Source: an uncultured Gammaproteobacteria bacterium (GTDB taxonomy: Bacteria; Patescibacteriota; Microgenomatia; Levybacterales; GWA1-39-11). From it: a DNA stretch of 64,000 bases. Under the pieces are notes generated by a model. The model was not told where the DNA came from and ran no database searches. It was given only the letters and a program-made list of their open reading frames with translations. How positions within the stretch are numbered: the stretch's first letter is position 1; the number at the start of each line of letters is the position of its first letter. Shown here piece after piece: positions 27,314 to 32,749 of this stretch. Where the stretch lies: assembly GCA_964452165.1 (NCBI GenBank), contig CAYVKP010000001.1:426375-490374 (forward strand). The letters are read 5' to 3'. Position numbers and translations under genes: made by a program.

Positions 27314-28225
27314 ATGAAAAAGGTTTTTGTAGTCATCTTAAATTTCAATGGCTTTGAGGATACCATTGCATGCGTAAAGTCTCTTCAGAAGATGGAAAAA
27401 AACGAGACACTGGAGATAGTGGTTATTGATAACGCCTCAAACAACGAATCCGTTGAGGAGATTAATAAAGCTCTGAGCGGCATAGTTTTTCTCAGGAATA
27501 AAGAAAATCTAGGGTTTTCCGGAGGTTGTAACGTGGGAATGCGTTATGCTATGGATAATGGAGCCGATTTCATAATGCTTCTCAATAACGATACTTTGGT
27601 AGATAAGAATTTACTAGACAATCTATTGAACACGTTTGGCCAAAGCGAAAATATTGGTGGAGTAGTCCCCAAAATATATTTTGCAAAAGGTCACGAATTT
27701 CACAAAGACAAATATAAAAAAAACGAACTCGGAAAAGTCATTTGGTATGCCGGAGGAAAAATGGACTGGAAAAACCTGATAGGAGAAAATATTGGAGTTG
27801 ATCAAGTGGATCATGGACAGTTTGATGTAGAGGCTGAAACTGAACTTGCAACAGGGTGTTGCTTTCTCATTAAAACGGAAGCTCTAAAAAAGGTGGGGGT
27901 TTTTGATGAAAGATATTATCTCTATTACGAAGATGCAGACCTCACGCAAAGGATGAAGAAGGCGGGTATGCGTGTCGTTTACAATCCCAAGGGTATAGTT
28001 TGGCATCTTAATGCAGGATCCGGTGGCGGTTCGGGATCAACTCTTCAGGACTATTACATAACACGCAACAGGCTTTTATTTGGATCCGCATATGCTTCGA
28101 TAAGAACTAAAATTGCTCTTCTTCGTGAGAGTCTCAAAATTTTCAAAGAGGGAAGGCAGTGGCAAAAAAAGGGAGTGGTGGATTTCTATCTTGGACGCTT
28201 TGGAAAAGGAAGCTTTCCAATTTAA
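27314..28225 (+). CDS. GT2 family glycosyltransferase (rhamnosyl/WbbL-like)
   Basis: 'VFVVILNFNGFEDTIACVKSL...VVIDNASNNES...LLNNDT'. Its C-terminal end is duplicated at 31007–31102. Confidence 0.8.
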   Translation: MKKVFVVILNFNGFEDTIACVKSLQKMEKNETLEIVVIDNASNNESVEEINKALSGIVFLRNKENLGFSGGCNVGMRYAMDNGADFIMLLNNDTLVDKNLLDNLLNTFGQSENIGGVVPKIYFAKGHEFHKDKYKKNELGKVIWYAGGKMDWKNLIGENIGVDQVDHGQFDVEAETELATGCCFLIKTEALKKVGVFDERYYLYYEDADLTQRMKKAGMRVVYNPKGIVWHLNAGSGGGSGSTLQDYYITRNRLLFGSAYASIRTKIALLRESLKIFKEGRQWQKKGVVDFYLGRFGKGSFPI

Positions 28226-28265
28226 AGTTAAGTGGTAAAATGCAGATATTATAAAGGTAACTAGT

Positions 28266-28838
28266 ATGAAGAATAATCTAAAAGACTTTCATCATTATAA
28301 AGGCGATGATCTCTCTCCTGCAGAGAAAATTGAAAGAAGAATTTTAGAGTTAATTATAGCTTCGAAAAATCCGGACGAAGAGAGGGAAGACTCTAAGATA
28401 TTTGAGCTGATGCATGCTTCGGGTTGTATGCAGATTGCTAGAATTTTAGCTCAGAAGAGAAATTTGGATGTAGAAATGTGTGAAATTGCGGCAATGCTAC
28501 ATGACATTTATGTAATTATTAACGGAACATATAAAAATCACGGTAAAGAAGGTTCTCCAATTGCTAGGCAAGTATTGGAAGAAGTTGGTGGTTTTAGCGA
28601 AGATCAAATCATTACAATTACTCAAGCAGTAGCCCACCACAGTGAGAAAGAAGTTTATTCAGATAATCCATACATGGAATTAGTAAAAGACGTTGACGTC
28701 TTCGATTGCTCTTTATATAAAAACGCTGAGGGATTTTATAGAATTCATAAGCCAGAACCAATTTTTAATGAATACGTTAAAAGAATTAAAAAAGTCAGAG
28801 AAGAACTTGGTTTGCTTCCGGGGGAGATATTTAGATAA
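28266..28838 (+). CDS. HD-domain metal-dependent phosphohydrolase
   Basis: 'HASGCMQIARILA...AAMLHDI...AHHSEKE' gives the H...HD...H...D spacing typical of HD domains. Confidence 0.65.
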   Translation: MKNNLKDFHHYKGDDLSPAEKIERRILELIIASKNPDEEREDSKIFELMHASGCMQIARILAQKRNLDVEMCEIAAMLHDIYVIINGTYKNHGKEGSPIARQVLEEVGGFSEDQIITITQAVAHHSEKEVYSDNPYMELVKDVDVFDCSLYKNAEGFYRIHKPEPIFNEYVKRIKKVREELGLLPGEIFR

Positions 28839-30161
28839 ATGCAAGATAAATGGTTTAGGTGGGAAAGAGAGGCGGCAATCCATCTTTTATTTCCGACTCT
28901 TGAAGGTTCGATGAAGCCCCTCGAGAAATTTACGGGTTTTGGATTTCCTACCACGATTTTAATCTTTAAAAATGGATTAGTTACTTGGTGTATGAAGGAT
29001 GCTGAGTTCTATGGATTGGGCTCTAAGCTTCTTGAGATTTACAAAGATCAAGAGAAAGAACGGGAGATGATAGAAGAGATGACTAGAAGATTAAAGGTCT
29101 TGGGGAGAATCGAGAAGGAAATAGATAAAATAGCTCTTTCGGGATTAAAAAATGGACAGCTAGCTGAGTTACATTCCAGGCTTCACGATGCTTTCGTAAA
29201 TTATTACGGAATAGGAGCAATACAAGAACCGCTTGCTATGCAAGCAGAAATAGAATTAAAAGAGGTTTCTGAATTAAATAGTGATGAGATAGCCCATCTT
29301 GTTGTTCCAGATAAACTTTCCTATATTCAGGAAGCTGACACTTATCTTTTAGATACAAAAGACATCGATGGTTTTATAAATAAGTATTTTTGGATAGATA
29401 ATAACTATTCCCAAACTAAAGTATTGTCCCAAGAGGAAGTTCAGAAAAGACTTTCCAGTATTAAGCCGGTTAAGTCCTCAGATAACAGTTCCCAAATTGC
29501 AGATTTAAATCCGGAATCAAAGAGGTTAGTAGAGTTATTAAAAAACTTTGCTAATTATCAGGATGATAGAAAAGCAAACATCTTAGTGTATTTGCATTAT
29601 CTAGAAGTTTTATTGAGAGAAATTGGAAGAAGAGCAAGCATTTCCATAAATGTAATGAGAGATACCTTTCCCCACGAAATAAAAGATATATTGGATAGAA
29701 ATGTTACTGAAGAGTTCATAAGTAAAAGAAGAGAGAAGTGTTTTGTGGTTTGGGAAGAAAATGCGGAAAAACCTTCAATTTTGGTTGGCGAAGAAACAAA
29801 AGAATGGGAGAAGATGTTAAGTTTACAAACAAAAGGTCCCCGTGTTGTTAAGGGTAACTGTGCCTCTAAAGGAATAATAACGGGTAAAGTTAGGGTGCTA
29901 TTAAATGCTAGCGAAAATGATAAATTAGAAGATGGAGAAGTTTTAGTCACATTTATGACCTCACCTGATTTCATGAGTGCGGTTAGAAAGTGTTCCGCAA
30001 TTGTCACTAACTATGGGGGTATTACATCTCACGCGGCAATTATCTCAAGGGAGTTAAGAATACCTTGCGTAGTCGGGACTAAAAATGCAACTGAAGTTTT
30101 AAAGACGGGTGACGTGGTGGAAGTAAATGCTGACAAGGGAGAGATAAGAATTCTATCATAA
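28839..30161 (+). CDS. PEP-utilising-enzyme mobile (phospho-histidine swivel) domain protein with a ~330-aa N-terminal domain of unknown, putatively substrate-binding function
   Basis: The C-terminal 'VTNYGGITSHAAIISRELRIPCVVGT' is the canonical GGxTSHAAI swivel-domain motif with the phospho-acceptor His. Its start codon abuts the HD gene stop. Confidence 0.8.
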   Translation: MQDKWFRWEREAAIHLLFPTLEGSMKPLEKFTGFGFPTTILIFKNGLVTWCMKDAEFYGLGSKLLEIYKDQEKEREMIEEMTRRLKVLGRIEKEIDKIALSGLKNGQLAELHSRLHDAFVNYYGIGAIQEPLAMQAEIELKEVSELNSDEIAHLVVPDKLSYIQEADTYLLDTKDIDGFINKYFWIDNNYSQTKVLSQEEVQKRLSSIKPVKSSDNSSQIADLNPESKRLVELLKNFANYQDDRKANILVYLHYLEVLLREIGRRASISINVMRDTFPHEIKDILDRNVTEEFISKRREKCFVVWEENAEKPSILVGEETKEWEKMLSLQTKGPRVVKGNCASKGIITGKVRVLLNASENDKLEDGEVLVTFMTSPDFMSAVRKCSAIVTNYGGITSHAAIISRELRIPCVVGTKNATEVLKTGDVVEVNADKGEIRILS

Positions 30162-30162
30162 A

Positions 30163-30996
30163 ATGGGATTTATCAAAAAATTTGGCGAAATATCCAAGGG
30201 AGACACAAAACAGGTAGGTGGTAAAGGCGCCTCTTTGGGAGAAATGGTAAAAGCGGGTATTCAAGTTCCCTCCGGTTTTGTTATAACTGCTCAAGCTCAC
30301 CAAAAATTTGTCAACGACTCTCTACCGGTTAATGTGAGAAAAGGAATTTTAAAAGCCTTTGATGAACTTGATGCCCAACAAGTTGCGGTTAGATCGTCAG
30401 CCATTGCAGAGGATTCATCTCAGGCTTCGTGGGCCGGACAATTAGAAACCTATCTTAATGTTTCAAGAGATGATTTAATAAATAAAGTTAGGGATTGTTG
30501 GAGTTCTGTTAAATCAGAAAGAGCTTTATCTTATGCGGGTGGACAGGACTTGGCAGAAGATGATTTATTCGTAGCTGTTGTCGTACAAAAAATGATTGAT
30601 AGTAAAACTTCGGGAGTAATGTTTACTGTCAATCCGATTACAAAAGACACAAATGAAGTTATGATCGAAGCAGGCTTTGGGTTGGGTGAGCTATTAGTTC
30701 AAGGATTAATTACGCCTGATAACTTTATCATTAATAAGAATACTTTCGAAATCAAAAGTAAAGATGTTCAAGCTCAAGATACTATGTTGGTATTTCAAGA
30801 GGGAGAAAATAAAGAAATCCCCGTCCCATCCGATAAGAGAAATGAACAAAAAGTTTCAGATGAAAACATCAGGGAATTAGTTAATATGGCTATAAAAATA
30901 GAAACACATTATGGAAAACCTCAGGACATAGAGTGGGCAATTGACGATCAAAATCGAATCTGGATTTTACAGTCAAGACCAATAACGACACTTTGA
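30163..30996 (+). CDS. Pyruvate phosphate dikinase / PEP synthase N-terminal ATP-grasp (PPDK_N) domain protein, stand-alone
   Basis: 'VGGKGASLGEMVKAGIQVPSGFVITAQA' and the C-terminal 'QDIEWAIDDQNRIWILQSRPIT' are PPDK_N signatures. It begins 1 nt after the upstream stop. Confidence 0.8.
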   Translation: MGFIKKFGEISKGDTKQVGGKGASLGEMVKAGIQVPSGFVITAQAHQKFVNDSLPVNVRKGILKAFDELDAQQVAVRSSAIAEDSSQASWAGQLETYLNVSRDDLINKVRDCWSSVKSERALSYAGGQDLAEDDLFVAVVVQKMIDSKTSGVMFTVNPITKDTNEVMIEAGFGLGELLVQGLITPDNFIINKNTFEIKSKDVQAQDTMLVFQEGENKEIPVPSDKRNEQKVSDENIRELVNMAIKIETHYGKPQDIEWAIDDQNRIWILQSRPITTL

Positions 30997-31006
30997 AGCT
31001 AAATTT

Positions 31007-31102
31007 ATGCAATTATTAAGTAAGTTAAAGATATTTGAGAACCAGGCGGGGGTTCTGGATTTTTACTTGGGTAGATTTGGAAGAGGAAGCTTTCCAATTT
31101 AA
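31007..31102 (+). pseudogene. 31-codon remnant homologous to the 3' end of the GT2 gene 27314–28225 (MQLLSKLKIFENQAGVLDFYLGRFGRGSFPI*)
   Basis: It aligns with '...LKIFKEGRQWQKKGVVDFYLGRFGKGSFPI*' at 28130–28225. The last 24 nt, including the stop, are identical. The next gene's ATG follows directly. Confidence 0.6.
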
Positions 31103-32749
31103 ATGGTAAGGAAATATTTAGGTTTTATACTTATTGTAGTCTTAGGCTTTGTGCCTTTAATTCCTTTGTTGCACGCAGGTTTGCCGATTACTCACGATGG
31201 GCAAGACCACGTAGCAAGAATTGCCAATTTCTATACTTCACTCTCCGAAGGAATTGTTATTCCGCGTTGGGCAGGTAATCTCAACTGGGGATACGGTCAC
31301 CCAATCTTAATGTTTTTATACCCCCTCTCATCTTACAGCGCTTCCCTGTTTCATTTTTTGGGCTTTTCATTCGTTGACAGTTTAAAGATAGTCTTCGGGT
31401 TAACTTTCATACTTAGTGGAATTTTTATGTACATGTGGGTCAGAGAGTTTTTGGGGGAAGAAGCAGGAGTTGTCAGCGGATTCTTATATATGTTTGCCCC
31501 CTACAGATTTGTAGATCTCTATGTTAGAGGAGCGATCGGCGAACACGTTGCGTTTATCTTTCCGCCTTTAATAGCTTATTTTCTTTTGAAAATCTCAACT
31601 TCCAAAAAACCTAATGGAGTTTATTTTGCAGGAGCGTCGATGTCGCTGGCCGGATTAATTCTTGCACACAATGCTATAAGCTTAATGTTTCTTCCTTTTA
31701 TAATTTTCTACGGAGTATATCTTCTCTTTCTATCGAAGAGAAGATCAGTCATTTTAGAATACGCTGCTGTTCTCTTTTTGGGATTTGCTCTATCCGCTTT
31801 TTTCTGGGTGCCGGCCTTCATGGAGGGAAAGTATACTTTGCGGGATATCGTAACTGAAGGAATCACTCTTTCTAGATTTGTGAACCTTAATAGTCTATTG
31901 TACGGCCCGTGGAATTATGGACAGACCGGCCAGTTTAGCTTACAGGTGGGAATCCTGTCTTGGTTGGCAGTCATTGTCTCGCCAGTTCTGCTCGTCAGAA
32001 AATTAAAAGCGGAAAAGAAGACTCGAGCTCTTTACCTCCTTGCGTTGATTTACTTCGCTGGCAGTCTTTTCATAATGCTTCCTATCTCGGCTCCGCTTTG
32101 GAAAGCAATAGGTACTCTTCAGAAATTTCAATTTCCGTGGAGATTTCTTTCAGTTTCTGTTTTTGCTGCAGCACTTATTGGTGCCATTGTGGCATCGGTT
32201 TTTAAGAAGTCAGCCAGATTATTAATGTTTGGAACAATAGTTCTATCATTAGTTTTAACTCATACTTACTGGATACCTAAAGGATACTTAGTTCGCCCCG
32301 AGTCTTTCTACAGCGGAATTTATAATGGCACAACAGATACCGGTGAAAGCGCGCCTATCTGGTCAGTCCGATTTATGGAGAGAAGACCAAAGGCCCGGGC
32401 TGAGATAATAGACGGCACCGCGCAAATAAAATACATACTGCGGAATTCAATTCATCACGCATACGAAGTTGACGCTAAAGACAGAATTAGAGTCAAAGAG
32501 AATACATTGTATTTTCCCGGTTGGAAAGTATACGTCGATGGAAAGGAATATCAAGACATCCAATTTCAAGATCCGGTAAATCGCGGGCTAATGACTTTTT
32601 TTGTATCCCCGGGGAATCATAGGATCGATGTCGTTTTTACCGATACCAAAATAAGAAAAATTTCAAACTACATTTCGTTAATCAGTTTATTTGTGATGTT
32701 GGCTTTCTCTGGAGTTTTTATCAGAAAATATGCAAAAGATACTAAATAA
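31103..32749 (+). CDS. Short YfhO-related polytopic membrane protein, family A paralog 3 (548 aa)
   Basis: 'THDGQDHVARIANFY...PRWAGNLNWGYGHPILMFLYP', 'FAPYRFVDLYVRGAIGE', 'FQFPWRF' and a C-terminal 'LYFPGWKVYVDGKEY'. Confidence 0.7.
   Translation: MVRKYLGFILIVVLGFVPLIPLLHAGLPITHDGQDHVARIANFYTSLSEGIVIPRWAGNLNWGYGHPILMFLYPLSSYSASLFHFLGFSFVDSLKIVFGLTFILSGIFMYMWVREFLGEEAGVVSGFLYMFAPYRFVDLYVRGAIGEHVAFIFPPLIAYFLLKISTSKKPNGVYFAGASMSLAGLILAHNAISLMFLPFIIFYGVYLLFLSKRRSVILEYAAVLFLGFALSAFFWVPAFMEGKYTLRDIVTEGITLSRFVNLNSLLYGPWNYGQTGQFSLQVGILSWLAVIVSPVLLVRKLKAEKKTRALYLLALIYFAGSLFIMLPISAPLWKAIGTLQKFQFPWRFLSVSVFAAALIGAIVASVFKKSARLLMFGTIVLSLVLTHTYWIPKGYLVRPESFYSGIYNGTTDTGESAPIWSVRFMERRPKARAEIIDGTAQIKYILRNSIHHAYEVDAKDRIRVKENTLYFPGWKVYVDGKEYQDIQFQDPVNRGLMTFFVSPGNHRIDVVFTDTKIRKISNYISLISLFVMLAFSGVFIRKYAKDTK

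Follow-up and report, generated by a model that had tools for sequence, protein, structure and literature searches.

A probable two-component RPH-type dikinase module with an HD phosphohydrolase partner in a candidate phyla radiation genome

What is the role of three tightly packed genes in which a phospho-histidine swivel domain and an ATP-grasp domain are encoded separately, in that order, and directly downstream of an HD phosphohydrolase? The genes lie in a stretch of 64,000 nt (hereafter the window; all window features given below are on the plus strand and numbered within it) of contig CAYVKP010000001.1, positions 426,375 to 490,374, in GenBank assembly GCA_964452165.1. Their nearest homologs, at 66-76% identity, are found in Daviesbacteria and Levybacteria; the genome therefore belongs to the candidate phyla radiation (CPR) and is of the Microgenomates type. 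The three genes probably constitute one self-contained module, in which an ATP-dependent dikinase with two components, of the rifampin phosphotransferase (RPH) type, is joined by an HD phosphohydrolase partner.

The first gene (28266-28838) encodes an HD-domain phosphohydrolase of 190 aa (Pfam HD, E 7.8e-10). It is followed by the gene for the swivel-bearing subunit (28839-30161; 440 aa), which matches the mobile domain of phosphoenolpyruvate (PEP)-utilising enzymes (PF00391 PEP-utilizers, residues 364-434, E 3.6e-25), and by the gene for a 277-aa ATP-grasp subunit (30163-30996; PF01326 PPDK_N, E 5.5e-87). The HD stop codon TAA (28836-28838) abuts the ATG at 28839, and a single spacer base separates the TAA at 30159-30161 from the ATG at 30163. 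All three open reading frames (ORFs) are intact and together they span ~2.7 kb. A scan of the three module proteins and of 20 neighbouring ORFs revealed no PEP-utilizers_C (TIM barrel) domain. The first-pass annotation of this DNA had described two dikinase genes, one for an N-terminal domain with a GGITSHAAI swivel and the next for an ATP-grasp domain, with no TIM barrel and with an HD gene abutting in the same operon, and each part of that description holds. The locus is not a product of chance, assembly error or frameshift, since its genes are intact and are kept as separate genes in many other genomes.

What kind of domain precedes the swivel? Residues 1-330 of the 440-aa protein (28839-29828) had been called an unknown domain of ~330 aa. 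They do lack a Pfam match, but the fold can be recognised in a predicted structure. An AlphaFold2 model built on 57 homologs (pLDDT 91.2, pTM 0.89) was compared with known structures by Foldseek, and the top six matches were all entries of RPH-Lm (E 7e-13 to 6e-10), in keeping with the RPH-like arrangement that had been proposed. In sequence, residues 225-439 can be aligned with residues 650-866 of RPH. In this alignment Y665-R666-E667-Y668-P669-K670 of RPH-Lm stands opposite Y240-Q241-D242-D243-R244-K245 (29556-29573), a putative phosphotransfer motif. R666, E667 and K670 of RPH are critical for the second phosphotransfer (PMC4844700). D242 aligns with E667 and K245 with K670, while R666 is opposite Q241, with R244 three residues further on; D242, R244 and K245 are invariant among the 57 family members. 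Based on the Foldseek matches, the alignment and the motif correspondence, the N-terminal domain is a compact, shortened homolog of the RPH rifampin-binding domain, that is, a substrate-binding domain and neither an unknown fold nor a TIM barrel.

This helical, rifampin-binding-like domain lies directly before the phospho-histidine swivel domain, which covers residues ~335-440 (29841-30161, including the stop codon). The catalytic His398 (codon 30030-30032) sits in the GGITSHAAI motif, a GGxxxH loop, and is invariant in the 57 homologs. The swivel is 50-60% identical to the swivel domains of PEP synthases (8a8e, E 4e-27, 99 bits).

The ATP-grasp subunit carries the ATP-phosphate ligands of the RPH superfamily. 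K21 corresponds to Lys22 of RPH, R77 to Arg117 and T96 to Thr136, and the glutamate of a QDIEW motif corresponds to Glu297; the roles of these RPH residues are taken from published work (PMC4844700). Its best matches in the PDB are PEP synthase (8a8e, 228 bits), HpeI (9goj, 178 bits) and RPH (163-165 bits). At 277 aa the protein is unusually small for an ATP-grasp, and it lacks the helical insert that is present in PEP synthase (8a8e residues ~55-146) and in RPH. The missing insert, which would lie after the GGKG loop and before the VRSSA motif, appears as a gap between query residues ~53 and 68-74.

Could the pair be nothing more than an ordinary PEP synthase (pyruvate, water dikinase) in two pieces, or one gene disrupted by a frameshift? 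Both the ATP-grasp and the swivel domain score higher against genuine PEP synthases (8a8e, 228 and 99 bits; NCBIfam PRK06464) than against HpeI or RPH. PEP synthase (PpsA) and PPDK have homologous ATP-grasp and swivel domains, and the GGITSHAAI motif is of the PEP synthase type. However, those enzymes have a PEP/pyruvate-binding TIM barrel and a swivel in mid-chain, whereas the window pair has no PEP-utilizers_C barrel nearby, a different domain order and an extra domain of the RPH fold. The NCBIfam PEP_synth scores of the window proteins (126-293 bits against cut-offs of 598-740) are, like all of their NCBIfam scores, far under the family cut-offs. Joining the genes in their present order cannot give a canonical gene. 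The first-pass annotation had itself left room for a PEP-utilisers TIM barrel in the N-terminal 330 aa and for a frameshift within one canonical gene; the predicted fold is of the RPH type instead, and the split recurs with clean junctions in independent genomes. A split PEP synthase or a frameshifted gene is thus scarcely credible, and the missing barrel, the RPH fold and the conserved split led us to reject both.

Is a split dikinase with permuted domains without precedent? It had been presented as a departure from the canonical enzymes, but the arrangement is not new. HpeHI, CreHI and phenylphosphate synthase PpsAB are RPH-like dikinases made of two proteins, with the swivel joined to the substrate-binding domain on one and the ATP-grasp domain on the other. 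Both components are required, and the mechanism passes through pyrophospho-His and then phospho-His; HpeH, CreH and PpsA share ~45% mutual identity, and the components measure ~70 and 40 kDa (PMC12167813). The window pair shows the same division of labour, in adjacent genes. In contrast to HpeH (71 kDa) and HpeI (41 kDa), the window proteins have sizes of ~50 and 31 kDa (440 and 277 aa), and the window ATP-grasp is nearer to archaeal PEP synthase than to HpeI (228 vs 178 bits). HpeHI, CreHI and PpsAB are encoded in aromatic-catabolism clusters, act on phenol substrates and have no HD partner. The window module, by contrast, has genes for glycosyltransferases and membrane proteins around it, 72 module loci show no conserved catabolic partner, and an HD protein is part of the module. 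NCBIfam models of the PRK08296 type align solely to residues 230-439 or 318-439 of the 440-aa protein, with 85-102 bits against cut-offs of 578-693. We take these 'hypothetical protein' models, which are of similar length and have a C-terminal swivel, to be stand-ins for HpeH/PpsA-like proteins, the HpeH, CreH and PpsA sequences not having been compared directly. Judged by the stand-ins, the sizes and the HpeI score, the window pair is not closely related to HpeH, CreH or PpsA.

Two single-chain enzymes are also informative. RPH-Lm (5FBS/5FBT/5HV1; PMC4844700) is one chain of 867 aa in the order ATP-grasp, substrate domain and swivel, whereas the window has two genes with the ATP-grasp second; the substrate domain of RPH-Lm is ~100 residues longer, and identity between RPH-Lm and the window module is only 17-19%. 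Plant glucan water dikinase GWD1 (PMC13553574) has a substrate-binding region, a His domain and a C-terminal ATP-binding domain, which is the gene order of the window, but it is a single chain of 1,400 aa with CBM45 modules and a polymer substrate, unlike the window module. The window pair is a distant, smaller branch of a known type of enzyme; the new elements are an obligate HD partner, minimal size and distribution in CPR bacteria and DPANN archaea.

How firm is the link to the HD protein? In a search that started from the swivel protein, an HD gene was found directly upstream in Levybacteria, in Daviesbacteria and in two DPANN archaeal loci, where the HD proteins are 47-48% identical to that of the window. 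Conversely, a dikinase gene adjoins all three of the HD homologs that are located on long contigs. In a reverse test, a metagenome scan with an HD alignment yielded 80 further loci; 71 loci, chosen by HD similarity alone apart from one duplicate of the window locus, had at least 400 nt of downstream sequence and were usable. The dikinase part begins no more than 150 nt 3' of the HD stop codon in 61 of these 71, frequently with an ATGA overlap, and in seven of the remaining ten it is adjacent in another way (convergent, upstream or as fragmented ORFs), for a total of 68/71; a few loci are near-duplicates of one another and inflate these counts slightly. The rarer arrangements include a fused dikinase convergent to HD (L156, L157, L161) and a swivel gene upstream of HD (L163, L122). 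Any other flanking gene family is limited to at most 5 of the 72 loci, and the genes that flank the module in the window were not found beside it in any other locus examined; the module is thus self-contained. The HD-dikinase linkage is strongly conserved across CPR bacteria, and DPANN archaea too have the HD-swivel pair.

The architecture of the dikinase part is less constant. In 44 of the 61 linked loci the dikinase is split and the N-domain/swivel gene comes first, while 17 begin with the ATP-grasp and encode single-chain proteins of 643-759 aa in RPH order (L119 and L139 are among such HD-linked relatives). Both forms can occupy the same place. Within a syntenic set comprising SBP, VanW, HD, dikinase, CTP_transf_like, DUF192 and TsaD, two loci (L089 and L090) carry a split pair of 479 and 275 aa, and in a third (L088) the slot after the orthologous HD holds a fused 759-aa ATP-grasp/N-domain/swivel protein in RPH order. 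Since the same HD-linked slot is sometimes filled by a single-chain protein of RPH order, the split and fused forms are interchangeable. The N-domains of the fused form in L088 and of the split forms in L089 and L090 have no mutual similarity at the BLAST level. A fusion in the gene order of the window (N-domain, swivel, ATP-grasp), as in GWD, was not found; all ten HD-linked fusions whose domain coordinates were examined have the RPH order.

Which of the three genes form the tightest unit? An ATP-grasp gene is present in 9 of the 32 split loci with enough sequence and is directly adjacent in all nine. As only these nine have the ATP-grasp gene in the locus, the tightest unit is the HD protein with the N-domain/swivel protein; in the window all three genes are present together. 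Between the window and 'type B' loci, identity is ~68% for HD, ~52% for the ATP-grasp and ~25% (E 1e-5) for the N-domain; the substrate-binding domain thus evolves much faster than its HD and ATP-grasp partners. HD identity falls in step with the type of N-domain, a pattern that fits co-divergence of the two sequences and would be compatible with module swapping as well.

What might the HD protein do? It has the H...HD...D metal-binding signature on an all-helical HD fold, with H50, H79-D80, H125 and D142 as putative metal ligands; H92 is also invariant. Its closest structures are small nucleotide (pyro)phosphohydrolases, namely YpgQ, YqeK/BH1327 and small alarmone hydrolases, whereas sequence comparison with the PDB gives marginal matches alone (YedJ, E 0.0014; 2pq7, E 0.049). 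The fold and the H...HD...H...D ligand pattern are those of small stand-alone HD phosphohydrolases (2pq7, Bacillus subtilis YpgQ, YqeK/BH1327 and Escherichia coli YedJ). This supports a putative function as a metal-dependent phospho(di)esterase or pyrophosphatase. The characterised subfamilies considered for the protein are the YpgQ NTP pyrophosphohydrolases, the YqeK Ap4A hydrolases and the SAH/(p)ppGpp hydrolases.

The first 17 residues of the HD protein (28266-28316) hold a near-invariant motif, L-K-D-F-H-H-Y-K-G, of which H9 is invariant even in archaea; this tail is predicted with low confidence and lies outside the HD fold. A conserved Tyr in the tail was considered as a protein substrate of the dikinase, and the idea was dropped when the position proved not to be kept in archaeal orthologs.

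From homology to RPH, HpeHI and PpsAB we infer dikinase chemistry for the window pair. The 277-aa ATP-grasp subunit would bind ATP, and His398 on the swivel would attack the beta-phosphate to give pyrophospho-His and AMP, after which the gamma-phosphate would leave as inorganic phosphate. The swivel would then swing back onto its own N-terminal RPH-like substrate-binding domain, where the D242/R244/K245 motif might help to move the phosphate to a hydroxyl of a small-molecule substrate. Finally, the HD protein could hydrolyse a phosphoester or pyrophosphate on the same molecule, either product or precursor, and so form a kinase/phosphohydrolase couple with the dikinase. That HD and dikinase share one small molecule is a tentative proposal, to which we give somewhat less than an even chance. 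The kinase with an opposing phosphatase that the first-pass annotation had suggested is likewise a possibility.

Several observations tell against this scheme. RPH Arg666 has Q241 as its counterpart, for which the invariant R244 is at best a plausible substitute, and the first ~225 residues of the 440-aa protein have no sequence-level match to any characterised enzyme. As many as 23 of the 32 split HD loci have no ATP-grasp gene within ~4.5 kb, with unrelated genes coming next; an HD-swivel pair of this kind may depend on an ATP-grasp encoded far away or on a different phosphoryl donor. If a kinase and a phosphatase were co-expressed and shared a substrate, the outcome would be a futile cycle. 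Conservation of the HD protein (47-82% identity) far exceeds that of the substrate-binding domain (25-73%, the lower end in 'type B' loci), a difference explained no less well by an HD whose target is constant, for instance a nucleotide or the phospho-His swivel.

It has to be asked, therefore, whether the HD protein serves the constant machinery and not the product of the dikinase. It might de-(pyro)phosphorylate the swivel His or the neighbouring Thr396 and thereby reset or regulate the dikinase, or it might process nucleotides (ATP, AMP or PPi-type). HD (~70% identity) and ATP-grasp (~53%) are indeed well kept where the substrate domain is barely recognisable (E 1e-5) or is replaced by a fused protein of RPH order, and the structures closest to HD are nucleotide (pyro)phosphohydrolases. 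Moreover, the swivel keeps the PEP synthase-type GGxTSH, including the Thr that is the regulatory phosphorylation site in PEP synthase/PPDK (PMC12167813). We regard this explanation as a serious rival, although an unlikely one.

How did the module come to lie where it does in the window? The cassette is bracketed by a 56-nt direct repeat, found by a repeat search of the window, whose copies are 80% identical and spaced 2877 nt apart. The upstream copy (28171-28226) is the true 3' end of a glycosyltransferase family 2 (GT2) gene (27314-28225). The downstream copy (31048-31103) corresponds to the final ~31 codons of a GT2 C-terminus and lies within a degenerate GT2 remnant (30998-31103; …LKIFENQAGVLDFYLGRFGRGSFPI*) directly after the cassette. 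By tblastn, the remnant has 55% amino-acid identity to the C-terminus of the GT2 protein encoded at 27314-28225, and none of the other paralogs in the window is matched. Since the GT2 gene ending at 28225 is the sole match of the downstream copy, the cassette appears to have been inserted at a GT2 paralog inside the glycan cluster, or to have replaced most of it. A promoter-like site 5' of the HD gene (28214-28241; 9/12 consensus matches with a TG extension) is weak evidence, as such sites are rarer in the region than in shuffled sequence. A hairpin followed by a T-run, 3' of the ATP-grasp gene (31038-31056), is a weak consensus match to a terminator.

This history bears on a further explanation, that the dikinase adds phosphate to a glycan or lipid-linked intermediate of the cell envelope, with the glycan made by the surrounding glycosyltransferase cluster, much as GWD acts on starch. 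The cassette does lie in a near-unbroken co-directional run of ~50 kb (~14300-64000), with repeated sets of genes for GT2, GT1, flippase (Polysacc_synt_3), YfhO and a PTPS_related (GT-C-like) membrane protein, which looks like extensive segmental duplication of envelope-glycan genes. Envelope genes also adjoin the module in some other loci (LytR and FemAB at L001, VanW at L088-L090, Wzy_C and PIG-V-like at L110), and in GWD the His domain likewise precedes a C-terminal ATP-binding domain (PMC13553574). However, the flanking genes of the window do not recur with the module in other loci, and each flanking family is seen in 5 of 72 loci at most; elsewhere the module adjoins genes for purine synthesis, RNase J, ClpP, Nramp or a nuclease, and no carbohydrate-binding module is present. 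The direct repeat and the GT2 remnant suggest a secondary arrival in the cluster and, together with the lack of conserved context, weigh against a role tied to it. A role on an envelope glycan is accordingly very improbable, and membership of the glycan pathway was rejected on the grounds of context.

Is the module instead one part of a larger family? A search with the N-domain gave 411 representative clusters (50% identity) at E<=1e-3 and 102 at E<=1e-10, mostly of 440-520 aa with some longer ATP-grasp fusions; HD homologs number more than 400. Arrays and fusions were surveyed in 83 loci, a sample that is biased because the swivel motif was used to retrieve it. Tandem substrate-binding/swivel paralogs number at least three in 26 of these loci, at least five in 12 and ten at the maximum, and there is never more than one stand-alone ATP-grasp gene per locus. 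Such array loci, from CPR and DPANN metagenome-assembled genomes (MAGs), include L011, L012, L016, L018, L019, L020, L030 and L058. One Levybacteria locus (L001:7396-12626) has a single HD gene, then three paralogs with a swivel domain (439, 465 and 355 aa) and last a single 277-aa ATP-grasp gene; the N-domains of its second and third paralogs are unrelated to that of the first at the BLAST level.

Seven loci encode giant fusions, in which one N-terminal ATP-grasp is followed by 2-8 substrate-domain/swivel modules, each swivel with an intact GGxx[STC]H catalytic-His motif. The largest, in a Woesearchaeota MAG (L037:1317-12602), has 3,761 aa and eight swivels; the others are at L071, L068, L079, L069, L026 and L053. 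Nothing relevant was found in the literature on HD and dikinase pairs or on swivel arrays and giant fusions in CPR and DPANN. These related arrays and polyproteins are a more surprising lead than the window module itself.

Do the arrays point to a detoxification system? The module might be an RPH-like xenobiotic- or antibiotic-modifying system that inactivates a toxic small molecule from hosts or competitors. The closest solved structure is that of an antibiotic resistance kinase, and the relatives of RPH form a wide family of small-molecule dikinases (PMC4844700). A fast-evolving substrate domain and arrays of up to ten divergent paralogs are what recognition of diverse chemicals would give, and the genomic context differs in almost every lineage, with a direct repeat around the window module. 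Against this, the type-A protein is a conserved, single ortholog over the whole range from Microgenomates to DPANN archaea, which is more housekeeping-like, and a resistance kinase has no obvious need of an HD hydrolase. Defence profiles gave no matches, although these cover phage defence and not drug resistance. On balance a resistance role seems quite unlikely. An anti-phage defence system was considered as well and was dropped, as none of the three proteins has a PADLOC match.

A broader proposal is that the HD and dikinase module is a conserved, usually single-copy member of a large, undescribed radiation of modular dikinases specific to CPR and DPANN, in which one ATP-grasp would charge many substrate-binding/swivel modules. 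Ultra-small symbionts might use it to phosphorylate, and so trap, activate or neutralise, varied small molecules derived from their hosts, with the HD-linked member as a dedicated phosphorylation/dephosphorylation step on one universal metabolite. This proposal draws on the arrays of up to ten paralogs with at most one ATP-grasp and on the polyproteins of up to 3,761 aa with eight intact swivels; it is possible but, taken as a whole, doubtful.

What does the locus mean for these organisms? Two-component RPH-like dikinases have been recognised lately, and in aromatic catabolism alone; the window locus represents a minimal, distantly related version with a wide distribution among CPR bacteria and DPANN archaea. 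The genomes of these groups are very small and have few genes to spare, and the dikinase is locked there to an HD partner that no characterised dikinase has. With three genes in ~2.7 kb, the module is of a size that suits direct biochemistry. Identification of its substrate would give a function to a conserved gene pair, and the module could reveal a metabolite-salvage, regulatory or detoxification step that is specific to episymbiotic microbes.

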